From Desulfatiglandales bacterium (lineage in GTDB: Bacteria; Desulfobacterota; DSM-4660; Desulfatiglandales; Desulfatiglandaceae), in NCBI GenBank assembly GCA_963662465.1, contig OY759599.1, positions 3,520,001 to 3,584,000 of the forward strand: DNA of 64,000 bases, written 5' to 3'. The notes beneath the pieces were generated by a model that saw only the letters and a program-made list of their open reading frames with translations, was not told where the DNA came from and ran no database searches. Shown piece by piece: positions 9,870 to 18,151 of this stretch. Position 1 is the stretch's first letter. Each line of letters begins with the position of its first letter. The translations under genes were made by a program, and so were the position numbers.

Positions 9870-10169
9870 GAACGTACTCCTCACTGACCCAAACATCAAT
9901 AAAAGCGGCAGACCCCCCAAACACTATTTCGGTCGGCCTCGTTAGTGCGCCGGAAAAACCTAACGCCATTTTCAAATCCTCACCATATAGAGGCTCGATT
10001 TATACAGGACCCATGGGTTTGTCAAGAGAAAAGTTTCACAAAACCTCATTAGGCGTACTCTTCGGGCTTACTGTAAACCTCTTAAGCCGCCCCCTTTAAA
10101 GGAAAAAACCGGAAGGGATGTTAAACTAGTACTCCTAAATTCAGATAATTGCCAATATCAAATTTTCAC

Positions 10170-10197
10170 CTCGTTCCCAAGCTCCAGATTGGGAACG
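10170..10197. repeat. REP palindrome (CTCGTTCCC..GGGAAC family)
   Basis: CTCGTTCCCAAGCTCCAGATTGGGAACG. Confidence 0.7.
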
Positions 10198-10244
10198 TAT
10201 TGCCTGGAGCCCCAACTTCCATAGCTCTTCCAAAGTCCAATGAC

Positions 10245-10445
10245 TTTTGCTGCCGCTAAGCCATTCTTACGGGCGCACAGAGATGCTTCCACCAGCCAGG
10301 CAATGAGCCTGGAGTCTTGAATCGAATATTGATTTCCTTGGGCATAAACCCCTTTGTCTTTTGTCTCGTTCATAACACCCCAATCGATGAATGATCGGAG
10401 TACCCGTTGAGCAGCCCGTGATGCTGTTTCGCGCCCCCCGTATTG
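10245..10445 (-). pseudogene. Internal remnant of BREX type 3 BrxA-like gene
   Basis: QYGGRETASRAAQRVLRSFIDWGVMNETKDKGVYAQG...LIAWLVEASL resembles the YGERETVSRAARRVLRSFIDWGV motif as recalled. Confidence 0.65.
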
Positions 10446-10455
10446 TTAAACGATA

Positions 10456-10539
10456 ACCGCCGACCTGCCTGATGATAAGAGGCGCTATTTTCGGGTAGAT
10501 CTGAGCCGGCAGCCTCGGAGTCATCTGCTCGGTGTTCAT
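10456..10539 (-). pseudogene. Possible C-terminal scrap of BREX type 3 helicase (BrxHII)
   Basis: AQIYPKIAPLIIRQVGG resembles the helicase C-terminus as recalled; position fits the gene order. Confidence 0.35.
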
Positions 10540-10543
10540 TGAA

Positions 10544-10861
10544 CTATATCATTCCTGCAAGGTGTCTGATTCCGTGACGAAACACCTGAAAGCTTTTCGA
10601 GTGATTGGTATCTACATTGATATAAGGGGATATTTTTTCCGCCCATTCGCATTTTGCTTTTCCGGTATGAGGCCAGCCCAATTGTTTCAATTTTTGCGAT
10701 CCTCCTGGATAGACGGCATCGGCCAGTTTCTCCCAGGTTCCGCAAATACTATCTTGCACATAATTGTTCAAAACCTGACCGTTTGGACCAAGAATTTTTT
10801 CTATAATATGCGCCAACGCAATTTTCCCAGACGCATCTTCAACAAGTACCTCAAAATGCAT
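10544..10861 (-). pseudogene. DUF4276-like (TOPRIM-related) protein with in-frame internal deletion
   Basis: MHFEVLVEDASGK..ILGPNGQ joined directly to VLNNYVQDSICGTWEKLADAV; 105 aa; central DxD and IEExEAW region absent. Confidence 0.7.
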
Positions 10862-10865
10862 CACT

Positions 10866-12158
10866 TCACCTCGCATCCAGATAGTCGCTGTACCAAAGGC
10901 CGCCAAGTGGCAGCCCCTCCTCCACCATCGCTTTGACGGTCGCGTCATCGCTTGCCCTATGGATACTTGAAAAGCCATCAGGACCTTTTTCAAGAATCCA
11001 TGTTTCTGCAGGCGAGAGTGCATCGACAAAATAGGGTTGATGTGTTGTGATGAAGAGTTGAGGTGCGTTCTTCTTGCCTGTTGCATGTTCGCGGAATTCA
11101 TTTACAAGTGTTTCCAGCAGCTTATGATATAGACCGTTTTCAGGCTCTTCAACGCAAATGAAGGGCGGAGGCACCGGGTCTTCCAATAAAAGCAGATAGG
11201 CAAATACTTTCAGCGTGCCGTCAGACATTTGCTGCGCATAAAACGGATCATCAAATCCTTTGTCGTTAAATCGAAGAAGCAAACGCTTATCCGGGCTTTC
11301 TTCCGTATCAATTTTGTCGATTCCGGGGATTTTTTTTGCGATACGATTAAGGAGACTCTTAAACCGTTTAGGATGTTCACGCTCCATGAACTGAACGACA
11401 TTTCCGAGATTGTCTCCGTGTATATTCAAGTGTTTTTGTGGACCGGCCAGTGGCAGGCTGCGGGCGGCATCCGGTGTAAAGTAACTTAAATACCATCCTT
11501 CGATGAACTGTCGAAAGGCGGATATGCGGGGATGTTGTTTCAGGGCGCCAAGGGTTGCGATGCCAAGTTTACGCTTGTCTTGCAGTTCAATGATTTCTGT
11601 TTCTTTGCTTTCTTCTTTTCGAGGGATTGCCTCAATTTCCTCAATTAATTTGAATAAATCAAAACCGGCATTACCTTCATCAATCTGCTGCCCCTGTTCG
11701 TCTCCTTTCCATACAACCCCTTTGCCTTCATTCAGCATAAGAAACGAGAAAGGCCAACCATGAGTTTGCCCTTTGCGCCGCTGGCGAAGACGTTCCAGTT
11801 TTACATAGGGACGACCGGTTCTATCCGTGTCAATTGAAAGTTCATAAGTGATCGGCCGGGAATTCCCATCTTGTTTATAATAAACCTGGAATTCAATCGG
11901 GTCATTCATCCCCTGAGAACGAATGCGGTCAAATCCACCCCTTCCTCTTGCATCACAAGCTTCTTCAACACCCAATTTCAGGCAATCAGCAAGAAATCCG
12001 AATGCATCGAACAAAGAACTCTTACCGACCCCGTTTTTACCGATCACAGCAGTCATGGGTGTTAGTGACTGCGCTTGCTGCATATTCCATAGTTTTCCAA
12101 GTGTTACGTCTTTTAATACACGGTAATTTTTTATCCTGAATCCTTCTATTTTTGCCAT
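10866..12158 (-). CDS. AAA_21/AbiEii-like ABC-type ATPase
   Basis: Walker A GKNGVGKS, signature MSDGT, Walker B ICVEEPENGL, ITTHQP; start MAKIEG after AGGAG. Confidence 0.9.
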   Translation of the reverse strand: MAKIEGFRIKNYRVLKDVTLGKLWNMQQAQSLTPMTAVIGKNGVGKSSLFDAFGFLADCLKLGVEEACDARGRGGFDRIRSQGMNDPIEFQVYYKQDGNSRPITYELSIDTDRTGRPYVKLERLRQRRKGQTHGWPFSFLMLNEGKGVVWKGDEQGQQIDEGNAGFDLFKLIEEIEAIPRKEESKETEIIELQDKRKLGIATLGALKQHPRISAFRQFIEGWYLSYFTPDAARSLPLAGPQKHLNIHGDNLGNVVQFMEREHPKRFKSLLNRIAKKIPGIDKIDTEESPDKRLLLRFNDKGFDDPFYAQQMSDGTLKVFAYLLLLEDPVPPPFICVEEPENGLYHKLLETLVNEFREHATGKKNAPQLFITTHQPYFVDALSPAETWILEKGPDGFSSIHRASDDATVKAMVEEGLPLGGLWYSDYLDAR

Positions 12159-12188
12159 AATCACTTTTCTCCTGTTCTCGTTACCGCA

Positions 12189-12239
12189 TTCCTCGAATTC
12201 GCGCATCAGGGGCCGCTCGCGCAGCTTTTCCAGGTCACC
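12189..12239 (-). pseudogene. Scrap of BREX type 3 methyltransferase (PglXI) C-terminal region
   Basis: GDLEKLRERPLMREFEE resembles GDLEKLRE(K/R)ALL(K/R)EFEEY as recalled. Confidence 0.55.
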
Positions 12240-12545
12240 AGTGGTAAGCCGGTGAACCTACAGGGCATGAATGATCCAAAGCGCCATGGGTTCGTAAGCC
12301 GGACGCGTAAAGGCCTTTTGAATGCGGGATTCCAGCACCTGGCTGCAGTCGATGACCACCTTAATATCGGGCGCCGCCCGGAAGGACGGGTTCTCACGGA
12401 GATTGGTCCAGCATGTGTCGTAGGCAATGAGACCGGACTGATTCTCGGGCAGGTCTTGATCAAGCATCTTCTTCATGTCCAAAGACAGCGTCTTCAGCAC
12501 CTCGCGCTTCTCCACCGCAGTCACCCGCTCAAAGGTATCAATCAC
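12234..12545 (-). pseudogene. Internal remnant of BREX type 3 BrxC/PglY-like ATPase (DUF6079)
   Basis: [20 protein letters not shown]...[39 protein letters not shown], with a nonsense codon at 12258-12260. Confidence 0.75.
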
Positions 12546-12706
12546 ATCGGCATTTCCGACGATTTCCCAAAGAAGACTGAGCAGTTGTCCACTGGCGCGC
12601 TGTCAAATCCAGCATCCGACGCGACCACCAACATCAGCCGGTCATAAAACTCAACAATCTGCTTGTACTTTCCTATGATCTGATCAACGAGAGATACCGC
12701 CCTCAT
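12543..12706 (-). pseudogene. Remnant of BREX type 3 BrxF P-loop protein
   Basis: Three frames give LVDQIIGKYKQIVEFYDRLMLVVA / RMLDLTARQ / [17 protein letters not shown]-loop deleted. Confidence 0.6.
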
Positions 12707-13118
12707 TGTTATCTTCCTGCATTTCGGTTAAAATTCTATGTGGGCAAACAATTTAGACATTTTGGAAACTTGCTTGGAATATTGATTTTTAAAAATCGAA
12801 CAGATCAATTTACCTACGGACAATATTCAATGTATACAACATCATTTATGCCAAAAAAGTCAATGGGAATGCAAAACATGGCTGCAAAACTGATAGATTC
12901 AATGCACCTCTTTCTACAAAACAGGCATTATTCAATACGCACCGGACGAAGCTACTGCATGTGGGTGAAACAGTCCATAAAATTTCACAAGAGGCTCGCA
13001 TGAAAAATAAATACCTCCCGGCAGCCAAGCGCAAACATATGGGGGTTGAAAAAAAAATCTCCAATTCCTATATTGTCGAAACCGGATTCATAGAGCCCTT
13101 ACAGAGGAGTTTACCATT

Positions 13119-14855
13119 TTGAGCTGCAAAATTACGTTGAAGGATGCATACAAGGGTTATACTTTTGACCAGGACAAAATTGTAACACCCGAAGAAACCG
13201 TCAGGCGTTTCAAAAACAAACTCAAAAAGATGGATCTGGATATCCTGGAAGAAACCGTTCGCATCGATAACGGCAGACTGGATATCCCTGTTTACTTCAG
13301 TGTTTGCGGGCGTGACGCCCTAGACATCATTGGAACCAAAAAACAGATGGGCAAGGGAGGGACTCCCAGCCAGTCCGAAGCCAGTGCGATAATGGAACTG
13401 GCGGAACGGTTCAGTTTTTTCAGTTTTTCGAAAAACCCCGCCAATTTCCGGGTAGATACTTATCGAAATGTGAAAAATACGGCCCTCCCCTTTGAAACCA
13501 TCGCCAAATCCGTGCATGATGATTTCCATGAACTGGACAGGGCCCGGGAAATATTTGAAGAACTCCCCCTCAAATGGACCCTTGGCTGCAACATGACAAA
13601 AGATCAGGAAGTTCTGATCCCTTTTGACTGGTTTTTTGCCATTAATGAATTCAATGGGCCGTCAGCCGGAAACTGCGTCGAGGAAGCCATGAGCCAGGGG
13701 ATCTGCGAACTGGTGGAGCGGCATGTATCCTCCATTATCAGCCGGGAACATCTGAACGTACCGGCCATTGATCTGGGGACGGTCTCGGATGCACTCACAT
13801 GCGAACTGATTTCAAAATTCCGGAAAGCCGGCGTTCAACTCTTTGCATCGGATTTTTCCCTGAACACCGGCATTCCGTCCGTAGGGGTGCTGGCCTACGA
13901 CCCCACCACCTTCCCTGAGAAAAGTGAAATCGTATGGACGGCAGGCACAACCCCCGATCCCCAGAAATCCTTGAGCCGGGCGCTAACCGAGGTGGCCCAA
14001 CTGGCCGGGGATTTCAACTCCGGTTCCAACTACGTAGCCAGCGGCCTTCCCAAATTCCGGGATCTTGCGGACGCCGATTTTATCCTGAACCCGGATCACA
14101 CGGTTCCCATTTCAAACCTTCCTTCTTTAGGCAACAATAACATCAAGATGGAGGTGCAAAACTGCATCGCGGCGCTAAATACCATGGCCATGGAGGTATT
14201 TGCCATCGATGTAATGCACCCAGGTCTTGAAATTCCGGCGTTTTATTCCATAATTCCGGGTGCCCATTTCAGGGAACGGGCTGTGGGAACCAGCGTGGGC
14301 ATGTTTTGCGCAAAGCTGATTTCCCAGGCAGACAGTACCTCATGGGCCATCGACCAATTGAACAAAATGGACCGGTTGCTGCCCGATAAATACTATGTTA
14401 AATTTTTCCTGGGATTGGCCCATATTTCTCTAAACAACCCCCGAAAAGCCCTTGAATTTTTGGAAGAAGCCCTGAAGTTAAACCCCAAACGGGAGGACCT
14501 ACCAAGCATCTATTCCTATATGGGGGTTTGCCTGAGGGATATGGAACAGTACCCTAAAGCCCTCATTGCCCTTGAAAAAGGGGTGGCCATCGACCCGGAA
14601 CGAACGGACATTCACAATCTCATGGGGTTTTGCTACTTCAAGCTGAAGGAGCATATCAAAGCCATAGAGGCGTTTCACAAAGTCCTGGAACTGGACCCCG
14701 CATCCGCCATCGATTACGCCAACATCGCATCCAATTATCGGGACATGGGCAATAAAGACATGGCCGTCCGTTTTTATAAATTCGCGCTGGAACTGGACGA
14801 ATCCATTGATTTTGCCAGGGACAATTTAAAGAAACTGGAAGGAAAACAGGGATGA
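13119..14855 (+). CDS. YcaO-family protein with C-terminal TPR repeats
   Basis: MGKG..SAIMELAERFS, NGPSAGN..ELVERH, RALTEVAQ motifs; about 4 TPRs; TTG start after GAGGAG. Confidence 0.9.
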   Translation: MSCKITLKDAYKGYTFDQDKIVTPEETVRRFKNKLKKMDLDILEETVRIDNGRLDIPVYFSVCGRDALDIIGTKKQMGKGGTPSQSEASAIMELAERFSFFSFSKNPANFRVDTYRNVKNTALPFETIAKSVHDDFHELDRAREIFEELPLKWTLGCNMTKDQEVLIPFDWFFAINEFNGPSAGNCVEEAMSQGICELVERHVSSIISREHLNVPAIDLGTVSDALTCELISKFRKAGVQLFASDFSLNTGIPSVGVLAYDPTTFPEKSEIVWTAGTTPDPQKSLSRALTEVAQLAGDFNSGSNYVASGLPKFRDLADADFILNPDHTVPISNLPSLGNNNIKMEVQNCIAALNTMAMEVFAIDVMHPGLEIPAFYSIIPGAHFRERAVGTSVGMFCAKLISQADSTSWAIDQLNKMDRLLPDKYYVKFFLGLAHISLNNPRKALEFLEEALKLNPKREDLPSIYSYMGVCLRDMEQYPKALIALEKGVAIDPERTDIHNLMGFCYFKLKEHIKAIEAFHKVLELDPASAIDYANIASNYRDMGNKDMAVRFYKFALELDESIDFARDNLKKLEGKQG

Positions 14856-16825: not shown

Positions 16826-18151
16826 GTGTATTTTGGTGAGTTCCACGATAGATATTCTCCGTTATTTCAAACACATAGCAGAGTAGCGGCAAGAAAGTCT
16901 CTTCAATATTTTAAAGGCTTGGTCCAAGCAAAGAAAAAGAACATGGAGCGGATGGCCGAGGCTGTTCCTTTTTCAGATGATCAAGCTCTTCAACATTTTT
17001 TGACAAATTCTCGGTGGGATGAACAACTGATTGTCGACCAAATTGCGGCAGACGCAAACAATCATATTGGGGGAAAACAAGACAGCTGTTTGATCATTGA
17101 TGAAACGGGGTTCCCCAAGAAAGGAGATAAGTCGGTTGGGGTTAAAAGGCAGTGGTGTGGGCAACTTGGGAAGGTAGACAATTGTCAGGTAGGCGTTTTT
17201 TCAGCGCTTGGGTGCAGGGAACACGCTACTCCTGTTGGCTTCAAATTGTACCTTCCGGAAGACTGGACTGATGATAAGGAAAGATGTAAAGCTGCTGGTA
17301 TTCCAGATGAATCCATTGTTTTTTACAGCAAGCATGACCTTGCTTTCCAGCTGGTCCTTGAGGCCCGGAAACAGGGCATTCAATTCGGCTGGGTCGGTGC
17401 AGATGGTTTCTACGGGGAAAGCCCTGCCTTTTTACGGTCTTTGGATCAAATCAATGAAACCTTCATGATTGACGTTCATAAGAATCAACGTATTTATCTC
17501 GAAAACCCGGAGCCGGTAGTTCCACAGAGAAGATCAAATAAAGGTCCAGAGCCGAAAAAGGCAAAAGCCCAAACAGAACCTGTCAGGGTCGATAAGTGGT
17601 CAGAACAACAGCCGGAAGATGCTTGGCAGAGAACGAATGTAAGAGACACGACCAAGGGAAAGCTTCAGGTCGACGTTCTGCATAGACGTGTATGGCTTTG
17701 GGACGGGGAGGAACTGGAGGCACATTGTTGGCACCTGATTGTTCGGAGGGAGGTTGCTGGAAATAAAGTAAAATTTACTTTGAGCAATGCTCCAGAGAAC
17801 ACTTCGCTGGAACGTTTGATATTTATGCAGGCACAGCGCTACTGGATAGAGCGTTCATTTCAAGACGCAAAGGTTGAATGTGGTTTAGGGGAGTACCAGG
17901 TGCGAAAGTGGCGGAGTTGGCATCACCACATGGCAATGGTCATGATGGCAATGCTATTTTTATTAGAGCAACGCCTTTTATATAAAAGGGATATCCCCTT
18001 ATTGAGTTGTTTTGACATTGTTTGCATTCTTTCATTTCTTTTACCCCAAAGAGCCTTCACAACGGATGAAGTTTTTCGGCAAATGGAAATTCGCCACAAA
18101 AAGCGTCAATCTGCAATTGACTCAGCATATCGTAAACAGCTCGCAGAATAA
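16826..18151 (+). CDS. IS701-family DDE transposase
   Basis: IIDETGFPKKGDKSVGVKRQWCGQLGKVDNCQ, ADGFYG, RYWIERSFQDAK, WHHHMAM. Confidence 0.93.
   Translation: MYFGEFHDRYSPLFQTHSRVAARKSLQYFKGLVQAKKKNMERMAEAVPFSDDQALQHFLTNSRWDEQLIVDQIAADANNHIGGKQDSCLIIDETGFPKKGDKSVGVKRQWCGQLGKVDNCQVGVFSALGCREHATPVGFKLYLPEDWTDDKERCKAAGIPDESIVFYSKHDLAFQLVLEARKQGIQFGWVGADGFYGESPAFLRSLDQINETFMIDVHKNQRIYLENPEPVVPQRRSNKGPEPKKAKAQTEPVRVDKWSEQQPEDAWQRTNVRDTTKGKLQVDVLHRRVWLWDGEELEAHCWHLIVRREVAGNKVKFTLSNAPENTSLERLIFMQAQRYWIERSFQDAKVECGLGEYQVRKWRSWHHHMAMVMMAMLFLLEQRLLYKRDIPLLSCFDIVCILSFLLPQRAFTTDEVFRQMEIRHKKRQSAIDSAYRKQLAE

Follow-up and report, generated by a model that had tools for sequence, protein, structure and literature searches.

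Remnant of a BREX type 3 locus with a nested HEC-01 gene pair in the genome of a Desulfatiglandales bacterium

The stretch of DNA analyzed here, 64,000 nucleotides (nt) from a Desulfatiglandales bacterium (contig OY759599.1, positions 3,520,001 to 3,584,000; "the window", whose first letter is position 1), contains the relic of a BREX type 3 (BREX-3) defence locus. All six BREX-3 core genes, brxF, brxC, pglXI, brxHII, pglZ and brxA, are represented, none of them whole, and only ~0.85 kb of 12.7 kb (~7%) is left. Nested among these scraps are the two genes of HEC-01, a candidate defence system of disputed activity: an intact ATPase gene (HEC-01A) and a truncated partner (HEC-01B). The reading that we consider likely is that a BREX-3 island carrying HEC-01 was eroded by serial, mostly microhomology-guided deletions, while selection kept the HEC-01 pair until HEC-01B lost 339 base pairs (bp). 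The locus is a BREX-3 relic and a broken member of HEC-01, and probably neither system defends today. Below, L, G and X numbers denote loci, genomes and public sequencing runs, respectively.

The scraps were located using DNA profiles (nhmmer) built from 12–21 full-length genes of relatives per BREX-3 component, together with PADLOC, Pfam and six-frame translation. All of them lie on the minus strand and are colinear with the intact loci L157, L112/L113, L229, and L184. A first-pass annotation of this DNA had proposed five ordered gene scraps of a BREX-3 locus, ~0.8 kb in total, and had suggested a six-frame comparison with intact loci. The comparison places the scraps in BREX-3 families and in colinear order, and the identity, the gene order and the amount of scrap sequence all hold against the profiles and L157, L112/L113, and L229; the genes are however six, since a pglZ scrap had been missed.

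At the 5′ end of the relic, the brxF-like segment previously placed at 12706–12543 is real and consists of two brxF pieces, one at 12619..12706 (start codon to ~codon 29; profile nt 3–85, nhmmer E 1.9e-10) and the other at 12543..12626 (~codons 57–84; profile nt 169–252, E 3.3e-10); the PADLOC BrxF match is weak on its own (E 0.033). An internal scrap of brxC (DUF6079) follows at 12234..12542, corresponding to amino acids (aa) ~300–406 of ~1240 (DNA profile nt 904–1214; PADLOC aa 300–395, E 1e-45; Pfam PF19557, E 3e-36), with the anticipated nonsense codon, a TAG, at 12260–12258. The pglXI-like scrap (12188..12239), which encodes DLEKLRERxLMREFE, is likewise genuine (profile nt 2588–2641, E 2e-12; PADLOC aa 838–857, E 1e-3) and is accompanied by a second pglXI piece at 12159..12187, consisting of the last codons, the stop and a purine-rich stretch before the ATPase start, identical to the sister locus L148. 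Beyond the HEC-01 genes, the putative helicase tail turned out to be a brxHII scar at 10470..10539 (profile nt 2807–2855), ending at ~10470 instead of the proposed 10456, in which the start codon is fused to the last ~25 codons; a separate middle helicase scrap was sought within the scar and was not found, the best alignment being start codon plus tail. The 27-nt pglZ scrap (10445..10472) encodes QAGRRLSFN and corresponds to PglZ aa ~98–107 (profile nt 289–318). Its match is weak alone (E 0.06); of 17 intact PglZ proteins, 3 contain QAGRRLSFN exactly and most of the remainder a slightly altered version. As a control, none of 400 random genome windows matched as well as the pglZ and brxHII scraps. 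The last scrap, brxA (10251..10447), was correctly recognized in the first reading and spans aa ~139–206 of ~251 (PADLOC E 4e-21; DNA profile nt 413–609). None of the scraps has an NCBIfam match, and the brxA, pglXI, and HEC-01B remnants are also without one in Pfam. The relic thus resembles BREX-3 in content and order but differs from it in lacking any whole core gene; the methylase domain is absent and the relic probably cannot methylate or restrict.

HEC-01A (10866..12158, minus strand) is an open frame of 430 aa (PADLOC PDLC04182, E 2e-197 over aa 1–429) with complete motifs (Walker A at aa 40, signature at 310, Walker B at 334, H-loop at 370). It had been described as an intact AAA ATPase; the frame is indeed intact, but the protein is an ABC/OLD-type rather than an AAA+ ATPase (bioRxiv 10.1101/2024.01.29.577857), and represents one half of the two-gene HEC-01 system. 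A PDB sequence search with the ATPase alignment found no relative at 1e-5. Its partner, HEC-01B (DUF4276, TOPRIM-like; 10544..10861, minus strand), starts 4 nt past the ATPase stop. As the earlier reading had claimed, this gene carries a deletion: it encodes 105 aa, as compared to 218 aa in L148 (PDLC04205, E 4e-36; DNA profile nt 1–92 and 434–669). The in-frame loss of 339 bp (113 codons) takes out aa 30–142 including the DxD motif, namely D86 and D88, invariant in 25 homologues; E8 is kept and the putative TOPRIM metal site is incomplete. The intact sister HEC-01B matches DUF4276 above the cut-off. When its structure model (pLDDT 77) was compared with the PDB, the top five rows were all OLD TOPRIM domains, with weak E values of 0.008–0.03 and none ≤0.001, and a PDB sequence search with HEC-01B returned chance rows only. 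The arrangement reproduces that of HEC-01, an ABC ATPase followed 4 nt on by a DUF4276/TOPRIM-like gene on the same strand within a larger defence operon; it differs in that the host is BREX-3 and not Hma, the host operon is gone, and HEC-01B is truncated. The pair also resembles PARIS (AriA/AriB) and TOPRIM-linked OLD-ABC systems, where a separate ABC ATPase and a TOPRIM nuclease (predicted here) lie inside BREX; however, the window ATPase scores far higher on the HEC-01A profile (654 bits) than on the AriA profile (164 bits, E 2e-48). The earlier statement that the nested gene was spared is correct for the ATPase, and probably for the pair during most of the collapse, but not for the partner as it stands now.

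Several sister alleles retain parts that the window has lost. L148, which is 97% identical, has the same helicase scar, an intact HEC-01B and an intact pglZ start overlapped by the scar frame. In L111 (80% identical there), the scar accompanies an intact pair flanked by two respiratory-complex-like genes, and thus persists across 20% DNA divergence. The public run X12 contains a sister of 96% identity in which both HEC-01 genes are whole and a separate deletion, 10534 to 10407, starts 10 nt past the HEC-01B stop and runs into brxA. Sisters in runs X4, X6, and X7 have a whole HEC-01B, the scar, and a brxA or brxC extending past the limits of the scraps, while L148/L199 lost pglXI in a different way from the window. 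Since the helicase deletion is common to relatives with intact HEC-01B and pglZ start, the collapse was stepwise; differing sister deletions together with the shared scar indicate that it proceeded in steps, and more than once, from one ancestral allele. Furthermore, what is left of HEC-01B differs from the sister sequence at ~2–3% of sites, like the ATPase, as compared to ~18% (alignment count) for the helicase scar, which suggests that HEC-01B was conserved until recently and died late. In L148 (3415–3510) and L111 (5743–5840) the scar is an in-frame mini-frame of ~32–34 codons whose end overlaps the pglZ start, an overlap that could preserve translational coupling.

Most junctions show microhomology of 3–8 bp. 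With the exception of HEC-01B, for which the 97% sister was available, these estimates were made with parents 75–90% identical. The brxF/brxF join is out of frame, with ~85–90 bp lost and ~6 or more bp shared by the parents. The brxC/pglXI join falls on GGTGAC (12239–12234), where at least 5 kb were lost and 6–8 bases are shared; the microhomology suspected here in the first reading is borne out, as both parent genes in real relatives carry GGTGAC, within Thr-Gly-Asp and Ala-Gly-Asp codons, respectively. The brxHII/pglZ and pglZ/brxA joins have 3 bp each, and the HEC-01B deletion lies on an exact 7-bp repeat, GGTCAGG (10780–10774), with 11 of 12 bases matching. By chance, at least 3 shared bases are expected with a probability of 0.057 (5.7%) and at least 7 with one of 0.0005 (0.05%). 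Simulations of serial deletion reproduce the observed 4 + 4 junctions with P 0.06–0.51 per side, which makes a special mechanism unnecessary.

The ATPase was under purifying selection. On the window branch we counted 11 synonymous, 8 non-synonymous and 2 unresolved changes over 285 and 1005 synonymous and non-synonymous sites, respectively, which corresponds to a ratio of non-synonymous to synonymous rates (dN/dS) of ~0.2 (P 0.0008 against neutrality). This result bears on neutral decay, by which the island would have died at once and the ATPase would merely not yet have been hit, an account of the locus that we regard as improbable. In its favour, decayed elements abound in the genome, among them a second BREX-3 relic and a BREX-3 locus riddled with insertion sequences, and the window branch, with 8 amino-acid to 11 synonymous changes, has more amino-acid changes than the sister branch (5 to 18), several of them falling at conserved sites; the difference is not significant (P 0.19). 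On the other hand, besides the low dN/dS, a whole ATPase survives simulated neutral deletion in only ~0.2% of the accepted runs (4/1798, 4/1684, 3/2239, and 6/1549), and deletion breakpoints lie close to the pair both in relatives and here, where they are 29 nt upstream of the ATPase start and ~75 nt downstream of the HEC-01B stop. Neutral decay is largely refuted for the time before the HEC-01B deletion, and probably describes the state since then. Today the ATPase is an orphan open frame.

For a survey of relatives, two sets of ATPase hits were used, the 80 best out of 573 and the 80 best out of 555, which after removal of redundancy left 148 loci. In 40 of these, the HEC-01 pair directly adjoins a pglXI end or a brxHII/pglZ piece, while the opposite strand and reversed flanks, used as controls, gave 0 matches; L157, L184, L046, L043, and L039 are examples of intact BREX-3 loci that carry HEC-01 in this slot between pglXI and brxHII. 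Eighteen linked loci were flagged as cut, although one has only a frameshift and insertions may account for about three. A whole HEC-01B is present in 17 of these 18 cut loci, in 19 of the 22 other linked loci and in 88 of the 108 unlinked ones (8 of these at the edge of a contig). Counted by hand, 9 deletion ends fall in the first 212 nt beyond the HEC-01B stop, as compared to 5 (strict count) or 10 (loose count) inside its 660 bp (P 0.002 and 0.024, respectively, for loci that are not independent). Among 22 loci retrieved with HEC-01B as query, 18 have both genes whole, 1 has HEC-01B with no ATPase match, 1 has both broken, 1 only a HEC-01B fragment, and 1 is the window itself. The clearest parallel is L049 (5901–12120), in which brxF, brxC, pglXI, brxHII, and brxA are reduced to ordered scraps and five cargo frames are whole (Schlafen/AlbA, HNH, MazG-like, HEC-01A, and HEC-01B). 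A quick ATPase tree with few settled branches (54 rows, at least 81% identity) scatters the collapsed loci and forces only 2 origins; the repeated origin of collapse is therefore deduced from the differing breakpoints, and not from the tree. Another collapsed BREX-3, L241 (2890–7874; G114:C147), consists of a pglXI end, intact helicase-like and DprA-family cargo genes, and brxHII and pglZ scraps fused to brxA.

It is about as improbable as neutral decay that the locus is a chimera, in which a trimmed HEC-01 cassette flanked by short pglXI and brxHII/pglZ ends recombined into an already decayed resident BREX-3. The identity to L148 ends sharply at 12187, but a 170-bp deletion within pglXI accounts for this break. 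The helicase scar is also found in L004/L111, whose ATPase is only 73% identical, so that these loci are mosaic, and in many loci duplicated pglXI 3′ and brxHII 5′ ends flank the cargo. Against a composite origin, one and the same X12 contig carries both the HEC-01 pair and a brxA with 95% identity to the scrap, and X6 holds the sister pair together with a brxC 93% identical to the scrap, although on a separate contig.

Continued use of the ATPase by itself or together with the 105-aa remnant, for instance as an orphan antitoxin or as a sensor for a nuclease encoded elsewhere, is in our view quite unlikely. The frame of the ATPase, its motifs and the purine-rich stretch upstream are intact, the HEC-01B deletion is in frame, and distant paralogues of the ATPase exist in the same genome (34–44% identity). 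However, an in-frame deletion arises in one third of cases by chance, the eight recent amino-acid changes of the ATPase include sites invariant in relatives, and the genome was found to contain no other HEC-01B homologue, the sole match being this gene. A single event of multi-jump template switching or end joining, suggested by scraps that are very short (27–310 nt) and dense and by the same pattern in the second relic of this genome and in the congener G010, is highly improbable, given that sisters keep intermediate states with only some of the deletions, such as the shared helicase scar, and that ordinary serial deletion reproduces both junction counts and scrap sizes.

According to the reading by serial deletion under selection for the pair, a BREX-3 island would first have entered the spacer beside ycaO. 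The helicase gene would have been deleted early and in frame, giving the state common to the relatives; further deletions would then have cut brxF, brxC, pglXI, pglZ, and brxA, with their ends stopping beside the HEC-01 pair. HEC-01B would have broken late, with the 339-bp deletion that took away the nuclease's predicted catalytic core. By analogy with PARIS and OLD systems, as treated in PMC12839542, the ATPase of the ancestral pair likely sensed for, or restrained, a toxic TOPRIM nuclease. Such a role would explain both a pair working without BREX and a nuclease lost first. Nuclease-first loss fits the restraint model and mirrors the erosion of chromosomal toxin-antitoxin loci, in which the toxin alone was lost 185 times and the antitoxin 8 times (PMC13617665). 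As in such eroding loci, the presumed toxic partner is broken here and the presumed regulator is whole; the difference is that HEC-01 is a putative toxin-antitoxin pair.

Several points weigh against this reconstruction. The join between the two pglXI pieces, where ~170 bp were lost, shows no microhomology, and the brxF/brxC join and that of brxA with the right end give no clear junction reading. As toy models, the simulations depend on deletion sizes that were assumed. The surveyed loci were selected by an intact ATPase and, since HEC-01B is whole in most unlinked loci as well, the number of cut loci that keep it is not in itself evidence of sparing. The asymmetry towards losing the nuclease first is weak: of 19 full-length HEC-01B genes, 1 is without an ATPase match in its 1.5-kb flank (P ~0.08 against an assumed 20%). 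That the core genes were lost before HEC-01B broke is inferred; when changes at invariant residues were compared, the scraps could not be ranked by time of death (brxC 3/51, 3′ part of HEC-01B 3/47, brxA 1/15, ATPase 10/350). Finally, HEC-01 gave no defence in its first test, by Payne et al. (bioRxiv 10.1101/2024.01.29.577857).

The individual parts of the locus and the nesting of defence genes are already known. The same preprint describes HEC-01 (Hma-embedded candidate 01) and the nesting of defence genes in BREX, and its guilt-by-embedding screen excluded systems with pseudogenes. A cold-seep study reports that one HEC-01 protected against at least one phage (10.1101/2024.09.26.614923). According to PMC12839542, 77% of type 3 taxa have BrxHII, and BREX often carries OLD-ABC/TOPRIM pairs as backup effectors. 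In the main texts of open papers, we found no account of a BREX-3 core collapsing around spared cargo; loci of this kind may be contained in the neighbourhood supplements of PMC12839542. The locus can be read as a record of nested defence genes outliving their host system, with sister alleles as the intermediates. HEC-01 was likely kept under purifying selection while its BREX host was being deleted; this argues for a HEC-01 function independent of BREX, and the analysis identifies specific intact alleles worth testing. The locus also indicates that some "standalone" defence genes are survivors of collapsed operons, and searches that discard pseudogenised systems would miss them.

A broader and more tentative proposal, which we hold to be possible but less probable than the reconstruction of this locus, is that BREX-3 acts as a nursery for small defence systems. 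Cargo would be stacked at the pglXI-brxHII joint when duplicated pglXI 3′ and brxHII 5′ ends recombine; repeated collapse of the costly core would then free autonomous cargo as seemingly standalone systems marked only by scars of 50–200 nt, and HEC-01 would be a self-sufficient, addiction-like ATPase-nuclease pair. If this is the case, the scars would offer a new way to find autonomous defence genes. Duplicated pglXI 3′ or brxHII 5′ ends flank the cargo on both sides in L060, L064, L023, L151, L168, L181, L195, and L228, with three pglXI copies in L060, which suggests that cargo is stacked when conserved gene ends recombine. The helicase gene is missing from the BREX-3 loci L096, L028, L119, and L053, in which pglZ and brxA are whole; the remaining core genes are whole in the first three, and L053 has a short helicase scar of its own. 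In addition, small frames are inserted at BREX-3 gene joints in L025 (579–989), L050 (12885–13286), and L067 (14790–15251), which we take to be four-helix-bundle-like and GxxExxY-like.

The BREX-3/HEC-01 relic is placed between a ycaO-TPR gene and the gene of an iron-sulfur membrane oxidoreductase, which are directly joined (empty site) in six congeners (G001–G005 and G008). The inserted island is bracketed by a 5-bp direct repeat, TTGGC, whose left copy lies at 13024..13028 and right copy at 10151..10155 (both minus strand); the motif is single in each of the three empty congener spacers read and present at both ends of the insert in the window. The leader of the island (12707..13023, minus strand) is 71% identical, over the aligned stretch, to that of the congener G006, where the same leader at the same site adjoining ycaO is followed by an undamaged brxF start. 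The G006 contig stops inside brxF, and queries with BrxC, PglZ, and HEC-01B found no match in this genome. Near the right end of the island, a short hairpin-like repeat (10169..10220), presumably REP-like, recurs in several relatives and in one other copy in this genome; an Rfam scan of 9900–13200 returned nothing at E up to 1. A scan for promoters and terminators gave numbers at chance level (7 vs. 4.3 ± 1.8 expected and 2 vs. 3.6 ± 2.0 expected, respectively). The possibility of a tRNA-anchored island was rejected because the window has no tRNA genes. A 6069-bp contig of one public run, possibly from the source sample, covers the whole stretch of the relic with 0 differences, which argues against misassembly. 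No RNA run containing the sequence was listed, a result without bearing on expression.

Other BREX-3 remains were observed in this genome and in a congener. A second, unrelated scrap chain (C1:7144696–7146035, L237), cut off by mobile elements, contains brxF nt 1–50, 87–132, and 344–471, and brxC 1–120 fused in frame to 1241–2202 with two stops. A third locus (C1:5956154–5982553, L238 and L239) is nearly full length; its brxC, pglXI, and pglZ are split by transposase-like insertions, and the profile scan found no brxA in it. The congener G010 (L236, L247, and L250) has two largely whole BREX-3 loci and three separate brxF/brxC scrap chains. Lastly, a transposase-like frame of 441 aa in the window (16826–18151, minus strand), which we assume to be IS701-like, is inserted amid the genes of an ABC-transporter cluster.

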